Shown: piece after piece, positions 368-27,174 of the stretch | Layout of the letters: each line of letters starts with the position of its first letter | How positions within the stretch are numbered: the stretch's first letter is position 1 | Assembly (NCBI GenBank): GCA_947175715.1 | Contig: CAMWOD010000001.1 | Coordinates: forward strand, 1-27,174 | Direction of reading: 5' to 3' | DNA: 27,174 bases | From: an uncultured Porphyromonadaceae bacterium | Lineage (GTDB): Bacteria > Bacteroidota > Bacteroidia > Bacteroidales > Muribaculaceae | Notes under the pieces: model-generated | What the model was told of the DNA's origin: nothing | Database searches by the model: none | The model's input: the letters and a program-made list of their open reading frames with translations, nothing else | Translations under genes and position numbers: made by a program

Positions 368-416
368 AAATTCCTAATTACTAATTCCTAATTACTAATT
401 GCTAATTGCTAATTGC
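368..416. repeat. Tandem heptamer array, 7 units, consensus TAATT[ACG]C
   Basis: Read directly: aaattcc taattac taattcc taattac taattgc taattgc taattgc. Confidence 0.97.
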
Positions 417-6175: not shown

Positions 6176-7521
6176 ACACACTAAAACATCTGCTGGCTCT
6201 CAGCATGACCATCCTGCTCATTGCCGGATGCTCCTCGAAAAAAGATGAATCAAGTGATTCTTCATCGTCAAGCAATTCGGAAGGCGCCGCATGCGTCACC
6301 GAGGTCAACAACGAGTTGCTGCGCACGGTCGACTATAACGCCACTGCAGTATTGGTGGCCAATCTCGAAAGCGTATTTAGCACTTACAGCGTCGATAATG
6401 CAGTTATAAAGGATTATGATGAATTCGCCGATCTTTCGTCGGTGGTATTGGTAATGCCTTCACTTAATGGCGAATCTTACACCACCTTCCTGATCGATAA
6501 CGCTGACGCATTCAATACATACGCCAACGGCAATCTCACCCAGCTCACCGACCGTGGCGACTTCGCCGTATACGCAAACCGCTATGACGATAGATACGTT
6601 ATGGTCAAAGGCTCGCAGATGTGGGTTGGCCGCAGTCCGTCGTCGATTGAGCAGAGCGTCAAGAATGCCGCCACACGCCACTTCGGCCAGGGTCTTGCCA
6701 TCTCTACAAGTATCGAACAGCCTCACTCGGTCAATATAGCCGTCAATATGAGCGCCATCCCCAATATCAAGGAGTATGGCAGCGAGTTTGCCGACGCATG
6801 GGGTATAGCCAATGTCGACATGACCAAATCGACCATCACCGGCGACGCAAAAATTATTTCAAGCAATGGCGATGCAGTGATGGTGCCCGGTATGCGTGAA
6901 CTGAGCACCAAATTTCTCAACTACACCATGGGTGAGCCCAATGTGGCTCTGGCCATGGGTATAGGTAAGGACTTCCCATGGAAGACAGTGCAGAAAGTCC
7001 TCACCGAGGCTGGTGCCGATCCTTCCGACCTGTCGTTGCTCCCTATCTTGGGTAAGATGATCGATGGCACCGTGAGCGCATCGGTTTCGATCGACTCCAA
7101 TAGTGGTGAAATATACTTCTCGGCCCTCATTGAGTCGTCAAATGCCGATCCCGAGGCTGTCATTGGTATGCTCCAGGGCTTCGTGGGCCAGGTGTCAAGC
7201 ACATCTGATGGTTTCTACAGTATACCGGTCGACGCCTTACCCTCGGGCAATATATACTTAGGCGCAGTTGGGGAGGCATTCTTTATAGGTAGCCACCACC
7301 CCTCACAGCTTTCAGGCAACAACAACCTGCAGTCGGTATTCTCGGGCAACGAAGCTGCTCTTTCTATCAATGTGCCCAAGAGCTTAATGATGATGCTGAC
7401 CGAAGGTGAAGGCACTTTTGGCCTGAATGGTAAGGTTCAGGTAGAAAAATCTACCGCTCACTTCGAGGTAAAAGTCACTGATACCGACATGAGTATTATC
7501 GAAGCTTTCAACAAGATGTAA
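6172..7521 (+). CDS. Lipoprotein, DUF4836-like (tentative)
   Basis: Lipobox 'LIAGC' followed by 'SSKKDE'. ATGA overlap with the GH31 stop; weak similarity to the downstream lipoprotein. Confidence 0.65.
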   Translation: MNTLKHLLALSMTILLIAGCSSKKDESSDSSSSSNSEGAACVTEVNNELLRTVDYNATAVLVANLESVFSTYSVDNAVIKDYDEFADLSSVVLVMPSLNGESYTTFLIDNADAFNTYANGNLTQLTDRGDFAVYANRYDDRYVMVKGSQMWVGRSPSSIEQSVKNAATRHFGQGLAISTSIEQPHSVNIAVNMSAIPNIKEYGSEFADAWGIANVDMTKSTITGDAKIISSNGDAVMVPGMRELSTKFLNYTMGEPNVALAMGIGKDFPWKTVQKVLTEAGADPSDLSLLPILGKMIDGTVSASVSIDSNSGEIYFSALIESSNADPEAVIGMLQGFVGQVSSTSDGFYSIPVDALPSGNIYLGAVGEAFFIGSHHPSQLSGNNNLQSVFSGNEAALSINVPKSLMMMLTEGEGTFGLNGKVQVEKSTAHFEVKVTDTDMSIIEAFNKM

Positions 7522-7546: not shown

Positions 7547-9130
7547 ATGAAATTTTCAACACATATCACCCGTAAGCTGAGTGCTGCCGCCATCATCCTG
7601 ACGGTAATGTTAGCCACAAGCTGCTCAAAAACCAGCGACATACACGAGACCATACCCGACGATGCCGCTGTGGTAGTTCATCTCGATTTAAAACAATTGA
7701 TCGATAACGCCGAGCTGCGAGAAAAGGGTAAATCGTACGCACTCCCCAAGGAATTTGACGAGCTCAACAACGACGGCCTCGAAGAAGATCTTGAGATGCT
7801 CTACAAAATGAAAGATTGCGTCGACTTGAGCAACATATTCGTAGTTAATATTTCTCGTGAAAATGGTGAAACTGCTCGCTATGATGAGCCGCATGATTAT
7901 GGCGAATACGTGACATTTCCGATCACCGATTTCGACGAATTTGAGAAGCAAATCAAGAGTATGGACTACTCGAAGGACTCCAGTGAGAGTGGGCTCGAAT
8001 GCTACACAATGAGTAAATACGAGTGGGCAACTAATTATATGCTGGTCAACGAGAGTCATACCCAAGGATGGCATGCCAATATAGAAAATAAAGTTGACTA
8101 TGATTATGACACTGACAAAAGGAAAATTATCCATAATCCACCGCAGGTAGTTACCGCAGCTGTGAAGAAAGCTGAAAGAGGCTCGCTTGCCGACGTAAAG
8201 GGTCCGGCCAACGTACTCAAGAGCGGCAAGGCGATCTCATTGGTGGCTACTCATAAGATACTTAAAAACAAGTGGTTTACATGCACAGCAGAAGCCCTTG
8301 GCGACGGTGAGGCACAGCTCGAAGCCAATCTGATGGATGCTGATGGCACCCTATGTGCGCTCGACAACTACTTCAACACGGTCAATACCAATGCGCTTGC
8401 GTTGCTCCCCGACGATGCCGACCTTGTGGCCGCTATGTCGCTCAATGTGCCCAACGACCTGAAACTTATCGAAGACCTGATTGGCAAGTTCGGTAGCGAG
8501 CGCGACCTGCGCATGTTCAAGCAACAGGCCAAATTGATTGAAACAACGGGCGATGTAGCATTCGGTGCCAAGCTCGCATCATTTGACAATCTGCTTAACT
8601 CTAATTTTTATCATGCCGAGCAGCTTCTTGAGGGTAAATGGACCCTGGTAGTAGGTGTTAAAGACCCCGAAACTATCCTCGGGTTGATTAAATCTTTTTG
8701 CGGAGGCGATGCCCGTATCACCGATATCGGCGATAAGAAATTTGACATAGAGATTAACAGGAACTTGTATAGGTATGATTATACTCGCGATACCGATGTG
8801 TTTGACGCCAGGCTGTCGGCCACATTGCACGTAGGGGTGATGGACGGCTATCTATATGTTTCTACCGTCGATGTCAAGAACAGTCCGGTGCCTGCGCAGG
8901 TAAGCAAAGTATTCGACAACGCTTCATTCGGTATCTACGCCCACACACCTTCAAAAATCAAGACATACTTTGACTTGCCCAACGAGATCACCGCTACCGC
9001 ACGCTGGAAGGGCACCCATACCCTTGTGGTCAATGCCAAGTTTGAAAACTCGACCCACGGCTTCATATACGACGTGATAAATATGTGTTTCAGGGCTGAG
9101 AAACAGATGAAAAAGAACATAAATTATTGA
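7547..9130 (+). CDS. Lipoprotein, DUF4836-like
   Basis: Lipobox 'LATSC', N-terminal 'TIPDDAAVVVHLDLKQL'. Lies directly upstream of an ABC ATPase/permease pair, the arrangement I recall for DUF4836 in Bacteroidales. Confidence 0.7.
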   Translation: MKFSTHITRKLSAAAIILTVMLATSCSKTSDIHETIPDDAAVVVHLDLKQLIDNAELREKGKSYALPKEFDELNNDGLEEDLEMLYKMKDCVDLSNIFVVNISRENGETARYDEPHDYGEYVTFPITDFDEFEKQIKSMDYSKDSSESGLECYTMSKYEWATNYMLVNESHTQGWHANIENKVDYDYDTDKRKIIHNPPQVVTAAVKKAERGSLADVKGPANVLKSGKAISLVATHKILKNKWFTCTAEALGDGEAQLEANLMDADGTLCALDNYFNTVNTNALALLPDDADLVAAMSLNVPNDLKLIEDLIGKFGSERDLRMFKQQAKLIETTGDVAFGAKLASFDNLLNSNFYHAEQLLEGKWTLVVGVKDPETILGLIKSFCGGDARITDIGDKKFDIEINRNLYRYDYTRDTDVFDARLSATLHVGVMDGYLYVSTVDVKNSPVPAQVSKVFDNASFGIYAHTPSKIKTYFDLPNEITATARWKGTHTLVVNAKFENSTHGFIYDVINMCFRAEKQMKKNINY

Positions 9131-24207: not shown

Positions 24208-25254
24208 TTACCTTGTTTTCTTGAGGAAAATCTCGGTGGGGAAGTGGTCGGAGTAACCGTTGAGGAACATTCCGGCCGAGAATGTACGCAGCGGTGAGCC
24301 TAAACGTGTACCGGCCTTGTCCTTAAGGAAGTCCTTGTTGAGCACCTCACATTTCCAGTATTGGAGTGCGCCTTCGGGGGCGTTGGCGAGATTGCCCGAG
24401 ATGATTATCTGGTCGAAGAGGTTCCACGAGCCTTTGTAGGCGAGTGTGCCGATACCCTTGGCGAGCAACTTCCACCAGGGATTGTAAAAGCCATGTTCGC
24501 CAGCGTCTTTAGCCTCCTTGACTGCGCCGAGCGATTTGCAGCATGACTTGTCCCAAGGGTCGTCGTTGAGGTCGCCCATCACGATAACGCCGATATTGGG
24601 GTCGGCCTGCCACAGCGAGTCGGCGATGGCCTTGGAGAGTTCGCCGGCGGCTTCACGCAGGTAGGAGCTGCGCTCCTGGCCACCAAGGCGCGAGGGCCAG
24701 TGGTTAACGATCACGGCGATACGGTCGCCACCGAGTCGACCTACCACACACATCTGATCGCGGGTGCGGAATGATTCGTACCCTTCGATGCGCAGGCGGT
24801 GGTTGGTGACGTTTTCGAGAGTGAAGTAGCGGGGATTGTAGAGCAGGCCCACGTCAACGCCGCGACGGTCGGGCGAGTCGTGATGGCATATCTGCAGGTC
24901 CCATTTTGCTATCTGCGGGTCTTTCACCAGGTCTTCGAGCACCGAGCGGTTTTCAATCTCGCTCACGCCTATGATTGCCGGGCCGTTGGGGGTGGTTGAG
25001 GTGGTCATCGACGCGATGGCGCGTGCCATGTTGTGGATTTTAGACCAGTATTTGCGGCCATCCCACTGGCGGGCACCCTGAGGCGAAAATTCGAGGTCGT
25101 ATTTGCCGTTGTTGTTGATGGTGTCGAATAGGTTTTCGAGGTTGTAAAATGCCACGCCGTAGACTTTGTATTGCTTAGAGTCATTTTTCTGGGCGCTGAC
25201 AGTGATGGCTATGAGGGCTGTCAATAATAGAGGTAGTAAGAATAAACGCTTCAT
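24208..25254 (-). CDS. Secreted endonuclease/exonuclease/phosphatase (EEP) family protein
   Basis: Signal peptide; 'AFYNLENLFDT', 'GVSEIEN', 'RRGVDVGLLY', 'NHWPSR', 'MGDLNDDP', 'FDQIIIS', 'GYSDHFP'. Confidence 0.93.
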   Translation of the reverse strand: MKRLFLLPLLLTALIAITVSAQKNDSKQYKVYGVAFYNLENLFDTINNNGKYDLEFSPQGARQWDGRKYWSKIHNMARAIASMTTSTTPNGPAIIGVSEIENRSVLEDLVKDPQIAKWDLQICHHDSPDRRGVDVGLLYNPRYFTLENVTNHRLRIEGYESFRTRDQMCVVGRLGGDRIAVIVNHWPSRLGGQERSSYLREAAGELSKAIADSLWQADPNIGVIVMGDLNDDPWDKSCCKSLGAVKEAKDAGEHGFYNPWWKLLAKGIGTLAYKGSWNLFDQIIISGNLANAPEGALQYWKCEVLNKDFLKDKAGTRLGSPLRTFSAGMFLNGYSDHFPTEIFLKKTR

Positions 25255-25377
25255 TATGTTGAAGTTATGGAGTGGTATTGACGTTTGAGGTTTTACTGCA
25301 TTTTTGCACGGTAAAGGTAAGGATTTTTAAAACAACATCCCCCTTTTTTAACATATATTTTTGTTTCTACGCCTCAT

Positions 25378-25481
25378 CGACCTCGGAGAGGTCGGAATAG
25401 TTGATAGCCCCTGGTGGAAGCGGCGAAGCCGACGTAACCTGGGGAGGCGGATAACACCATATAATTCAGCCTCGGAGAGGC
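25378..25481 (+). repeat. Structured REP-like unit 1 (X)
   Basis: cgacctc-GGA-gaggtcg hairpin; cccctggt...acctgggg stem enclosing cggc-GAA-gccg; gcctc-GGA-gaggc hairpin. Confidence 0.85.
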
Positions 25482-25546
25482 GGCTTAATTGTGTTGATGA
25501 AGTTTTGGCAGATTGGAGCGATGCGTAGCATCAGCGACAATGCGCG

Positions 25547-25685
25547 GCGTAGCCGCCGGTCTCTGTTACAACCATGACATCGTACCTCCGGCACTCAGCG
25601 GAGCTTACGGGCATGGCCTCCCCGCGTTCGGGCTTACGCCCATCACACGGGGTTCGGTACGATATCGCCGCTCCGCGGCTCAGCT
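25547..25685 (-). repeat. Structured REP-like unit 2 (Y); direct repeat of 27032-27170
   Basis: 139 bp with 8 mismatches to 27032-27170 by hand alignment. On the minus strand: gccgc-GGA-gcggc, a CCCC..GGGG hairpin, gtgcc-GGA-ggtac. Confidence 0.95.
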
Positions 25686-25689
25686 GTCG

Positions 25690-25734
25690 TCAGATTGGTC
25701 TGATAATCCTAATTACTCCGATTACTCCGATTTG
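25690..25734. repeat. Tandem nonamer array, 5 degenerate units
   Basis: tcagattgg tctgataat cctaattac tccgattac tccgatttg. Confidence 0.8.
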
Positions 25735-25863
25735 AGCCGCGGCGCGGCGATATTGTTCTGAACCCCACATGAAGCGAAGCGAGTGTGGGGAATCCAAACC
25801 AAAAAGAATTCTGAGTGCCGGAGGCATGATGTCGTGGTGGCAGGCAAAGACCGGCAGCTACGC
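25732..25863 (+). repeat. Structured REP-like unit 3 (Y'), diverged inverted copy of unit 2
   Basis: tgagccgcggcgcggcgatattg..gaacccc..tgtgggg..ctgagtgccggaggcatgatgtcgtgg..agaccggcagctacgc aligns with the reverse complement of 25547-25685. Confidence 0.9.
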
Positions 25864-25908
25864 AGCGCATATCCTGCGGCATTCATTCTCTCCCCCCTCC
25901 TTCATTCA

Positions 25909-26018
25909 CCATGACATCGCCTCTCCGAGGCTCAATATTATGGTAGGACGTCCTTTCCCCAGGTTTCGGTCTACGACATGCACCTGGGGCTACCTATAAT
26001 TGCGGCCTCACCGAGGCC
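25909..26018 (-). repeat. Structured REP-like unit 4 (X'), diverged inverted copy of unit 1
   Basis: gcctc-tcc-gaggc (25919-25931), perfect ccccaggt/acctgggg stem (25957-25988), ggcctc-acc-gaggcc (26004-26018). Reverse complement shares 'tagcccc.ggtg', 'aacctgggga', 'agcctcggagaggcg' with unit 1. Confidence 0.88.
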
Positions 26019-26037
26019 ACCCTCCACCTCATCACCC

Positions 26038-26072
26038 CAATTGCTCATTACTAATTGCTCATTCCTAATTCC
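26038..26072. repeat. Second heptamer array, 5 units, T[AC]ATT[ACG]C
   Basis: caattgc tcattac taattgc tcattcc taattcc; same unit and strand as 368-416. Confidence 0.9.
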
Positions 26073-26094
26073 CCACCAACCTATGCGTCGTCGG

Positions 26095-26952
26095 TTATTC
26101 TTTATCAGGAGCTTTGGGAGCAGGGTATTGGTGTCGATATACGTAATCTTTGAAAGCTTTATTATTGAAATCCCTTATTTCCTCAAATTGGCGAGCTATA
26201 TCTATAAGTTCGCGTGCCTGCAAGGGTCTGTTCCCCATGGTAAGGGCGAGCTTATAAACGACTAATTTCTGTCTGAGCGCAAGATCGGACTCATTTAGCT
26301 CAGGTGAGATCTGACCCGCATAGCTGTCCAACAACTCGATAATTGCGCTTGTAGAATATCCATGATATATGCAATTGCAAATAACGGTATGTGGGTCGAT
26401 GGGACGTCTGTAGCCTCCTTCATCTTCCGGCTCATATGGCGTTACGGGTGGCGAATAAGGCGCTGGCGAGACATAGCGATTATCAACACGAATTTGTATG
26501 TACCCATTTAATGTAGGTTTTAACGCAGGGTCATTTAACTTGCCATAGCCATTTGTGTCGCTGTATGTGAATGAAAATTTGAGTGGTTCCAATTCGGCAT
26601 AATCCAGTTGTGAGTCTTCCAGTGCGCAGTCTGTTATCCACAAGGGAGACGGCTCACAGTAAATGTTTATGTTCAGCAAGCCGTTTTCAGCGGAAGTTTT
26701 GAATCGTGAGCAGCCAATAGATGTGAAAAGCAGCTGTTCATCACCTTGAGCCGTAACACCCTTAATTGTAATCCCCCCAGGCTCGATTCCTGTCGATCCA
26801 ACCCTGAGTAAGGAATAGTCACGGCTTGCGTTTATACAGTAATGATATGTATCCAAATAAAGCTTAATCTCATAGGCATGCGCAAATGAGCAAGACATGA
26901 GCGCAGAAACGGCCATCACAGCGCTTATTATAACCCGGAGTATTGTTTTCAT
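26095..26952 (-). CDS. Hypothetical exported protein (no family recognised)
   Basis: 285-aa ORF with N-terminal signal (SPI 'AHA|Y' or lipobox-like 'LMSC'), own upstream -7 element, AT-rich (23/60 GC at 26521-26580). Confidence 0.8.
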   Translation of the reverse strand: MKTILRVIISAVMAVSALMSCSFAHAYEIKLYLDTYHYCINASRDYSLLRVGSTGIEPGGITIKGVTAQGDEQLLFTSIGCSRFKTSAENGLLNINIYCEPSPLWITDCALEDSQLDYAELEPLKFSFTYSDTNGYGKLNDPALKPTLNGYIQIRVDNRYVSPAPYSPPVTPYEPEDEGGYRRPIDPHTVICNCIYHGYSTSAIIELLDSYAGQISPELNESDLALRQKLVVYKLALTMGNRPLQARELIDIARQFEEIRDFNNKAFKDYVYRHQYPAPKAPDKE

Positions 26953-26986
26953 ATCATTGAATTATCGTCAGAAGTTGTTACAGTGG

Positions 26987-26994
26987 CAAATATA
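26987..26994 (-). promoter_or_regulatory. Bacteroidetes -7 element (TATATTTG) for the 285-aa orphan
   Basis: TAnnTTTG match 34 nt upstream of ATG 26952. Confidence 0.6.
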
Positions 26995-27031
26995 ACAAAA
27001 TTATTGGAGAATGCTTGATAAAAAGAGGGCT

Positions 27032-27170
27032 GCGTAGCCGCCGGTCTCTGTCGCGACCATGACATCGTACCTCCGGCACTCCGAGGAGCTTACGGGTATG
27101 GCCTCCCCGCGTTCGGGCGTACGCCCATCACACGGGGTTCGGTACGATATCGCCTCTCCGCGGCTCAGCT
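27032..27170 (-). repeat. Structured REP-like unit 5; direct repeat of 25547-25685, reaching the window edge
   Basis: Hand alignment 131/139 identical to unit 2. Confidence 0.95.
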
Positions 27171-27174
27171 TTCG

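Follow-up and report, generated by a model that had tools for sequence, protein, structure and literature searches.

Does an AT-rich orphan gene that lies between two structured direct repeats represent a captured cassette, or have the repeats been duplicated around an accessory gene? The question is raised by the right end of a 27,174-bp stretch of DNA (the window), which is the entire contig C1 (CAMWOD010000001.1) of a fragmented metagenome bin, G000 (GCA_947175715.1), of an uncultured Muribaculaceae bacterium. The region, located upstream of an endonuclease/exonuclease/phosphatase (EEP) gene and a DUF6359 gene, had been read in an initial annotation as a gene cassette captured or mobilised between folded sites of single-stranded DNA. 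The explanation that we favour, with moderate confidence, is that blocks of repetitive extragenic palindromic (REP) units resembling bacterial interspersed mosaic elements (BIMEs) were duplicated and homogenised around a strain-variable accessory gene, and that they belong to a dispersed family tied to IS200-like Y1 transposase genes. As a part of this same judgement, and with no greater confidence, the locus is taken to represent a system of the kind formed by REP units, REP doublets forming hairpins (REPINs) and REP-associated tyrosine transposases (RAYTs) in an uncultured gut member of the Bacteroidales. The locus marks a strain-variable spot; it is not a proven gene-capture device.

The bin comprises 1.45 Mb in 269 contigs, is 68.6% complete and has a GC content of 51.5%, and its sequence is found in sequencing runs from animal gut metagenomes. 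The relatives compared were 41 genomes, including a sister species (G005), a congener (G001) and a member of another genus (G009). A second public assembly from a near-identical strain (L037; 99.97% identity over 7519 bp) extends 600 bp beyond the window end. Junctions were searched for in the assembled contigs and unitigs of four sequencing runs, including X1 (source-like) and X3 (a closer strain), the latter being represented by short contigs at 90-96% identity.

The repeats had been described as two 139-bp units in the same orientation (25547-25685 and 27032-27170), and the alignment reproduces both the 8 mismatches and the distance of 1485 nt between them. The content reported between the copies is also present, namely the repeat units Y' and X', a heptamer array and a single AT-rich open reading frame with its own -7 box. 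The match spans 146 nt (25544-25689 versus 27029-27174; 93% identical), with a BLAST E value of 1.5e-58 against the whole 1.45-Mb assembly. The closeness of this pair is therefore real and its uniqueness is not, because a third copy at G000:C96:5116-5261 is 92% identical. The length of 139 bp had to be revised as well, since the units are the first parts of two blocks of ~555 bp. The blocks, their small modules and the gene are listed below.

25544-26098, + strand: block B1, the proximal 555-bp copy (Y, hairpin/nonamer spacer, Y', X', heptamers), from a base-by-base alignment with L037.
27029-27174, + strand: start of block B2, the distal copy (unit 5, with its REP core at 27056-27166), cut by the contig end.
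25689-25732, + strand: spacer at the centre of the Y/Y' inverted doublet, read from the sequence as a small hairpin (TCAGA..TCTGA) followed by TAATTAC / TCCGATTAC repeats.
26038-26072, + strand: heptamer array T[AC]ATT[ACG]C of five units, 22 nt past the orphan stop codon, from a regular-expression scan.
26095-26952, - strand: orphan gene of 285 amino acids, an open reading frame.

The whole block, in the order Y, spacer, Y', X' and heptamers, is repeated in the second assembly with 95.7% identity (L037:193-746 versus window 26098-25544), and the part of B2 that is missing from the window is visible at L037:193-600. B1 ends at the stop codon of the orphan gene; for each copy, homology reaches no further than the stop codon of the gene that precedes it. 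The two blocks differ at 24 of 555 positions, with the Y parts 7% diverged, and are perfectly identical over a central stretch of 279 nt (25688-25966 = 27173-27451). If the differences were evenly spread, the chance of such a difference-free core would be about (276/555)^24, or roughly 5e-8 by our own arithmetic. The location of all 24 differences outside the 279-nt core suggests an older duplication followed by gene conversion rather than the footprint of a fresh insertion. In run X1, the unitig covering 25635-26024 has a depth of 19.6, compared to 7-10 in the flanks, which is the depth expected of two copies; both block exits are present, and the junction to the next gene matches L037.

The end of the window is an assembly break and not a biological boundary. 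Contig C1 stops at 27174, one base after the start of the exact 279-nt stretch at 27173, and it is this exact repeat that stopped the assembler. The same behaviour is seen across the bin, where 8 of the 16 repeat-bearing contigs carry a unit less than 200 nt from a contig end, while only 7.4% of the assembly lies that near an end. The possibility that the array continues was borne out by L037, where the 3' end of another small gene comes after the second block, so that the alternation of gene and block goes on. The last ~29 codons of this gene and about 100 nt of its 3' flank are known (L037:1-192), and they have no match in G000 or G005 except for one 40-nt motif.

The units within the blocks belong to a dispersed family. 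An iterated nhmmer search converged on a 111-nt core with 34 matches on 16 contigs of G000, and the family covers all five units of the window.

25381-25492, - strand: REP-like unit X (nhmmer E = 1.6e-12).
25571-25681, + strand: REP-like unit Y, the core of the first 139-bp unit, or unit 2 (nhmmer E = 5.9e-25; covariation).
25734-25838, - strand: REP-like unit Y' (nhmmer E = 7.8e-24; forms inverted repeats with Y).
25908-26017, + strand: REP-like unit X' (nhmmer E = 1.1e-16).
27056-27166, + strand: REP-like unit 5 (nhmmer family model).
25547-25561, + strand: A motif, GCGTAGCCGCCGGTC, at the 5' edge of unit Y; also at 25849-25863 (-) and 27032-27046 (+).

Family units are ~110 nt long and contain three conserved hairpins, and the structured nature that the initial annotation ascribed to the repeats is upheld by both pairing and covariation across 25 family members. 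In the 25-member alignment, the hairpin pairing is kept in 88.7% of cells, compared to 33-50% when the partners are slid, and 13 of the 18 pairs show changes on both sides, compared to at most 7 in the slid controls. Folded as DNA, unit 2 has a z score of -2.35. Y and Y' together form a convergent, REPIN-like doublet, and convergent inverted doublets are found on C1 (Y/Y'), C6, C46, C96, C101, C151, C218 and C224. A scan of 25200-27174 with Rfam models returned a plant microRNA match on the Y/Y' palindrome, which was discarded as meaningless at 37 bits against a gathering score of 95.

The clusters also contain smaller modules. The A motif (GCGTAGCNGCCGGTC) has 21 copies in the genome at one mismatch or fewer, the hairpin-plus-nonamer spacer has only four assembled copies (C1, C15 twice and C96), and a 21-nt hairpin tagged with GTAG has 10 copies. 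The last of these (GTAG plus a GGACGCG..CGCGTCC hairpin; for example C6:1193-1213, C46:6809-6829 and C101:1857-1877) usually adjoins the larger units; classical-looking, it is a second REP class in this genome. Such a mosaic make-up of the clusters is the organisation known from BIMEs.

The enzymes to which the family is tied lie on another contig. G000 encodes two small Y1 (HUH) proteins, both on C33 and 26% identical to each other, and each gene is flanked by inverted copies of repeat sequence.

C33:536-994 (L016), - strand: Y1 gene P_A, 152 amino acids, flanked by inverted A motifs.
C33:6747-7190 (L015), + strand: Y1 gene P_B, 147 amino acids, flanked by inverted full-length, diverged units.

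The units that flank P_B are located at C33:6609-6705 (-) and 7196-7297 (+), with E values of about 1e-5 each. Both proteins carry the motifs NHIH and Y---Q--HH (YVLNQPQHH and YIMNQEVHH), and their closest solved relatives are the IS608 and ISDra2 transposases. With the NCBIfam IS200 model, whose cut-off is 55 bits, the scores are 78 and 48.5 bits, and the two proteins score as IS200-like rather than as canonical RAYTs (TnpA-REP, class 2) in these model comparisons. In G005, three of the five Y1 genes have inverted flanks of 40-63 nt, and matches to the family model lie beside two of them.

Genes of this kind are present in 28 of the 41 genomes. The distribution of the repeat DNA is far narrower, with 35 BLAST matches in G000 and 12 in G005; outside these two genomes, only two 44-nt matches to the spacer region were found, in G009 (E = 2.4e-5). 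Because the repeats are otherwise confined to G000 and G005 while the Y1 genes are widespread, the sequence data describe a REP family that is specific to this lineage and is attached to an enzyme family that is old and diversified. The initial annotation had also considered that the array might continue with the catalytic gene. Contig C1 carries no Y1 gene or tyrosine recombinase gene; the Y1 genes lie on C33, and in this 68.6%-complete assembly, where the far side of the islet is unassembled, the tyrosine recombinase matches (PF00589) lie only on C12 and C269.

Heptamer arrays of the TAATTNC type are seen at gene 3' ends and beside REP units (26038-26072, G000:C33:1091-1123 and window 375-416), and the array on C33 lies directly upstream of P_A. 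TTAC is the target of IS608. From their sequence, the heptamer arrays contain TTAC and might be candidate insertion targets.

The site itself varies between relatives. EEP orthologues are present in 40 of the 41 genomes searched, and the gene, a core-genome neighbour, bounds the variable spot on its fixed side. In the comparisons with G005, G001 and the X3 strain alike, synteny stops at 25365/25366, which is the edge of the variable islet; the far side is not assembled in G000, where the end of serS coincides with the end of contig C53.

24208-25254, - strand: EEP gene (Pfam PF19580, E = 2.2e-110).
25255-25366, no strand given: conserved EEP upstream region, from BLAST end points and the X3 joint at 25366.
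L031:5018-5980 (G005:C8): IS30-like gene (HTH_38 and rve domains) and two unknown open reading frames in the serS-EEP slot of G005.

Both kinds of allele that a mobile gene would lead one to look for exist. In G001, whose EEP is 88% identical, a distance of ~85 nt separates serS from the conserved EEP upstream region, and both the repeats and the orphan gene are missing, whereas in G005 (EEP 95% identical) the slot holds the IS30-like gene, the two unknown open reading frames and REP-like units. In the X3 strain (EEP region 92.6% identical, orphan gene ~96%), the EEP upstream region joins at 25366 to one unit and then continues at 26030; two pieces of 36 nt and 18 nt in short contigs at ~93% identity were taken as that single REP unit. 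The possibility that the orphan gene sits beside EEP in relatives without the repeats, which would speak against mobility, is thus answered in two ways: X3 has the gene next to EEP with only a single unit and without most of block B1, and empty and other-cargo alleles are found as predicted.

The predicted excision left no trace in the assemblies, as no junction for a 1485-bp deletion or for a distinguishable circle was found in the contigs of the four runs, and those of run X1 contain no joint going back or skipping ~1485 nt; rare forms would escape detection in contigs, and block B2 itself has the sequence that a circle junction would have. A joint in X3 from 27024 to 25510, which goes back 1515 nt, was rejected as a circle and is rather attributed to a related strain with an upstream repeat copy that is 34 nt longer.

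The orphan gene, foreign in appearance, has a GC content of 0.44, compared to 0.56-0.57 in the two neighbour genes and 0.515 in the genome, and is present as a single copy in G000. Its product is a predicted lipoprotein, with an N-terminal hydrophobic segment followed by ..ALMSC, and matches no Pfam or NCBIfam family above cut-off. Homologues form only two clusters among 5.8 billion proteins. The AlphaFold model has a mean confidence (pLDDT) of 44.8, the ESM Atlas gave no usable match, the plasmids and phages searched contain no match, and no relatives were found in the metagenome and genome contig sets. The only distant homologue is in G005 (70% amino acid identity). It occupies a different locus, with carA on one side and a nitroreductase gene on the other, and is surrounded by other small AT-rich genes and REP-like units. 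There, the REP units lie on one side only, with none upstream, and the homology between the two loci is limited to the coding sequence (26150-26909).

A promoter element of the TAnnTTTG type (TATATTTG, - strand, 26986-26993) lies 34 nt before the ATG, within the following segment.

26909-27028, - strand: lineage-specific 5' segment with promoter, 5' untranslated region and first 14 codons, from BLAST ends and protein alignment.

The BLAST homology to the versions in L038 (96% nucleotide identity) and L032 (G005) ends at 26909 in both cases, and these two versions have another N-terminus in common. The promoter and first 14 codons were thus replaced in the lineage of the window. The stretch 26974-27022 is 84% identical to L032:7339-7387, which is the promoter of an unrelated 156-amino-acid lipoprotein-like gene in G005. 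At both loci, this 49-nt segment with its TAnnTTTG box immediately adjoins a REP unit end, so it seems that the edge of the repeat carries a promoter module along with it.

Direct repeats around accessory modules are not confined to the window.

L055:1868-1935 and 2818-2890 (G000:C15): module of REP unit, promoter and HigB(Gp49)/HTH toxin-antitoxin pair between copies of a 73-nt direct repeat.
L087:374-1408 (G005:C2): ~200-nt direct repeats (96.5% identical) around a P_A orthologue (52% amino acid identity).
L032:5589-5658 and 7956-8025 (G005:C45): 70-nt repeat around the orphan islet in G005.

The repeat on C15 consists of the GTAG-tagged hairpin and the hairpin/nonamer spacer, and the TAG stop codon of the antitoxin is the TAG of the repeat's GTAG; G005 and G001 lack the toxin-antitoxin module at their syntenic sites. 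The repeat on G005:C2 starts at the stop codon of the P_A orthologue and has a partial third tandem copy downstream. Comparison of the three direct-repeat-bracketed inserts of the window, C15 and the P_A orthologue of G005 revealed no shared junction sequence. REP units lie beside low-GC genes in 9 of 28 cases, compared to 9.2% genome-wide (Fisher p = 5.5e-4), an excess put at five times the expectation, and these genes include HigB/HTH, HEPN/MNT, Fic and Abi_2.

Defence-type genes of low GC content adjoin REP units on C162, C236 and C237 (L058, L056 and L057), comprising Abi_2 with a YhcG PDDEXK nuclease, a HEPN/nucleotidyltransferase pair and Fic/DOC. A conserved motif of ~60-70 nt is located behind three unrelated small genes (L032:5589-5658 and 7956-8025; L037:134-173), and one of its frames reads ..ITMEALNSGGIEVKSH up to a stop codon. 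It could be a tiny open reading frame with a double-glycine-like motif or an RNA element.

A sequence of events can be proposed for the blocks. REP-type units, for whose spread the Y1 enzymes are the presumed agents, would have settled in the intergenic spaces of a recombination-prone serS-EEP islet. A multi-unit block in the 3' flank of one gene may then have been duplicated locally to the 3' end of the neighbour gene, and gene conversion would subsequently have kept the two blocks similar. The blocks could favour the gain or loss of the gene between them through homologous recombination of the ordinary kind and not through a recombinase dedicated to cassettes. Since they offer 555 bp of homology, it is physically plausible that the 1485-bp unit is deleted by recombination of the RecA type. 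REP clusters commonly start at stop codons, and the blocks described here likewise begin right at stop codons. They probably act on DNA as recombination sites and perhaps on mRNA as 3' stabilisers or terminators. A role of the blocks in gene gain and loss is a serious possibility because direct-repeat-bracketed modules recur, whereas a dedicated site-specific cassette system is not supported.

Several points weigh against the duplication of REP blocks as a sufficient account. Direct repeats recur around accessory modules, and bystander repeats do not explain this recurrence; in all of the bracketed examples, moreover, the repeat begins at or near the stop codon of the preceding gene. The orphan gene occupies different loci in G000 and G005 and adjoins REP units both times. 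The evidence from the X3 strain consists of short contigs at 90-96% identity. On the enzyme side, the Y1 proteins are only presumed to act on the repeats, and their score with the NCBIfam model for RAYTs (REP_Tyr_transpos) is 22 bits against a cut-off of 80. As for the cassette between folded sites that was originally proposed, the folded REP-like sites, the Y1 link and the predicted alleles are supported, while the dedicated system, the junction and the excision are not; in particular, the two units do not make up a dedicated site pair but are portions of the duplicated 555-bp blocks, whose family extends across the genome.

The alternative that survives best, although we regard it as rather unlikely, is a cassette driven by homology. 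A circular molecule carrying promoter, gene and 3' block would have integrated into a resident block by a single crossover of the Campbell type, thereby duplicating the block, and RecA-type recombination would re-excise the 1485-bp circle, so that REP blocks serve as portable homology by which accessory genes move between loci and strains. The 555-bp direct repeats with their perfect 279-nt core are what such a crossover would leave, the empty and alternative-cargo alleles at the serS-EEP site and the occurrence of the orphan gene at another REP-bearing locus in G005 fit a moving gene, and the three further bracketed accessory modules and the enrichment of REP units beside low-GC defence and toxin-antitoxin genes point in the same direction. 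However, no deletion or circle junction was found in the four runs, with the limits of contigs and the identity of a circle junction to B2 given above, and in the X3 strain the gene is present while block B1 is missing. Upstream of the G005 copy there is no unit, the homology of this copy to G000 covers only the coding sequence, and the 7% divergence of the Y parts means that the event was not recent.

A wider reading, in which REP blocks and other 3'-flank repeats form a general gene-shuffling system whose promoter-gene-block units are inserted and excised by Y1 enzymes or by recombination that these stimulate, appears improbable. If it were true, lipoprotein, toxin-antitoxin and defence cassettes would constitute an integron-like pool built on HUH and single-stranded DNA chemistry. 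The four direct-repeat-bracketed modules in two genomes, each with a repeat that starts at or near a stop codon, would then be its footprints.

We consider it very unlikely that the Y1 enzyme itself takes same-orientation hairpins as left and right ends and moves the gene as single-stranded DNA, in the manner of an IS200/IS605-like element with cargo or of an attC analogue. The ends of IS200/IS605 elements are hairpins on the same strand; in addition, the two genomic Y1 genes are flanked by the motifs of the units, and the units are conserved as structures. On the other hand, the orphan gene is single-copy, and no whole element of left end, cargo and right end was found at a second locus, the G005 homologue corresponding to the coding sequence only. 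The three insert junctions have no common sequence, and each side shows a 555-bp multi-unit block instead of one hairpin per end. Contig C1 lacks a Y1 or tyrosine recombinase gene, the orphan gene has its own promoter, and in related strains that carry it the layout of the repeats is different.

Elements of the IS1634 type produce direct repeats of up to several hundred bp, from which one could imagine that the 930-bp insert at 26099-27028 is a transposase-less derivative and the 555-bp repeat its duplicated target, an idea to which we give little credence. An inverted similarity (TTTATCA..AGC, score 8) close to the ends of the insert is weak, being matched by 36 of 2000 shuffles, and it is offset from the termini and lies inside the gene's conserved last codons; the C15 insert shows no such similarity, as 1708 of 2000 shuffles do as well. 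Furthermore, no DDE_Tnp_1 (PF01609) gene was found in the 68.6%-complete assembly, the differences between the two repeat copies are mosaic, and the X3 strain lacks B1. Least credible of all is an artefact in which reads mis-joined across a dispersed repeat created the second block or the gene's linkage to both blocks, as the fragmented bin of 269 contigs, the contig end within a repeat and short unitigs unable to phase a 279-nt exact repeat might suggest, because two assemblies agree at 99.97% across the gene and both block edges, the copies carry distinct variants at both edges and lead to different flanks, and run X1 shows a block depth of ~2x the flanks with both exits present.

The preferred reading, that of REP blocks duplicated around a strain-variable gene, has consequences beyond this locus. 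If the blocks do promote the gain and loss of accessory genes, they would offer a simple and testable route to strain-level variation in gut commensals. The repeats also break metagenome assemblies exactly at accessory genes, and such genes are therefore under-sampled in binned genomes.

The kind of element, that is, REP, BIME or REPIN repeats with a Y1 enzyme, is already known; to our knowledge, REP/RAYT systems are well studied in Proteobacteria and hardly in gut Bacteroidales. An integron cassette consists of an open reading frame with a single attC site of about 57-141 nt at its 3' end, is mostly promoterless and is recombined by IntI. The locus has several features in common with such cassettes: a folded repeat lies behind the gene, copies in the same orientation stand on either side, the pattern goes on as in an array, and relatives differ in the cargo that they carry. 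It differs in the lack of a nearby IntI gene (PF00589 matches only on C12 and C269 of the 68.6%-complete assembly), in its 555-bp four-unit block, in the gene's own -7 box, in the genome-wide dispersal of the repeats and in the absence of a conserved crossover point.

The features shared with the REP/BIME/REPIN-RAYT systems of E. coli and Pseudomonas fluorescens (PMC3116915, PMC6006769) include dispersed intergenic hairpins, inverted doublets, mosaic clusters behind stop codons, low-copy Y1 (HUH) genes with inverted copies at their flanks, a narrow lineage and broken short-read assemblies. In contrast to the single 20-40-nt palindromes of those systems, the units described here are ~110 nt long with three hairpins, their Y1 enzymes are IS200-like and far below the RAYT model (22 versus 80 bits), and whole 555-bp blocks are duplicated around a gene.

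Two described enzyme subclasses are relevant in this respect. Subclass 1.2 of TnpA-Y1 comprises small IS200-like proteins of Cyanobacteria and Bacteroidetes of about 148 amino acids, with the motif Y---Q--HH and low copy number, generally without terminal IS200-type structures and with no REP listed (PMC6006769). P_A and P_B resemble it in size (~150 amino acids), in both motifs (Y---Q--HH and NHIH) and in low copy number, an assignment made by motif only, but their genes lie between inverted structured repeats with dispersed copies. Subclass 2.6 of TnpA-REP, or RAYT group 5, is mostly from Bacteroidetes and has 'atypical secondary structures' at the gene flanks with copies elsewhere in the genome, the motif YIH[QN]NP and a mean length of 179 amino acids (PMC6006769). 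The phylum and the atypical, larger structured flanks with copies elsewhere are common to both, whereas the enzymes of G000 have Y..NQ..HH and 147-152 amino acids. Compared to all of these systems, the ~110-nt three-hairpin unit architecture and the duplication of whole blocks around accessory genes are new, as apparently is the pairing with IS200-like enzymes of the subclass-1.2 type, by which a Y1 subclass reported without repeats is tied here to a lineage-specific family of large three-hairpin units.

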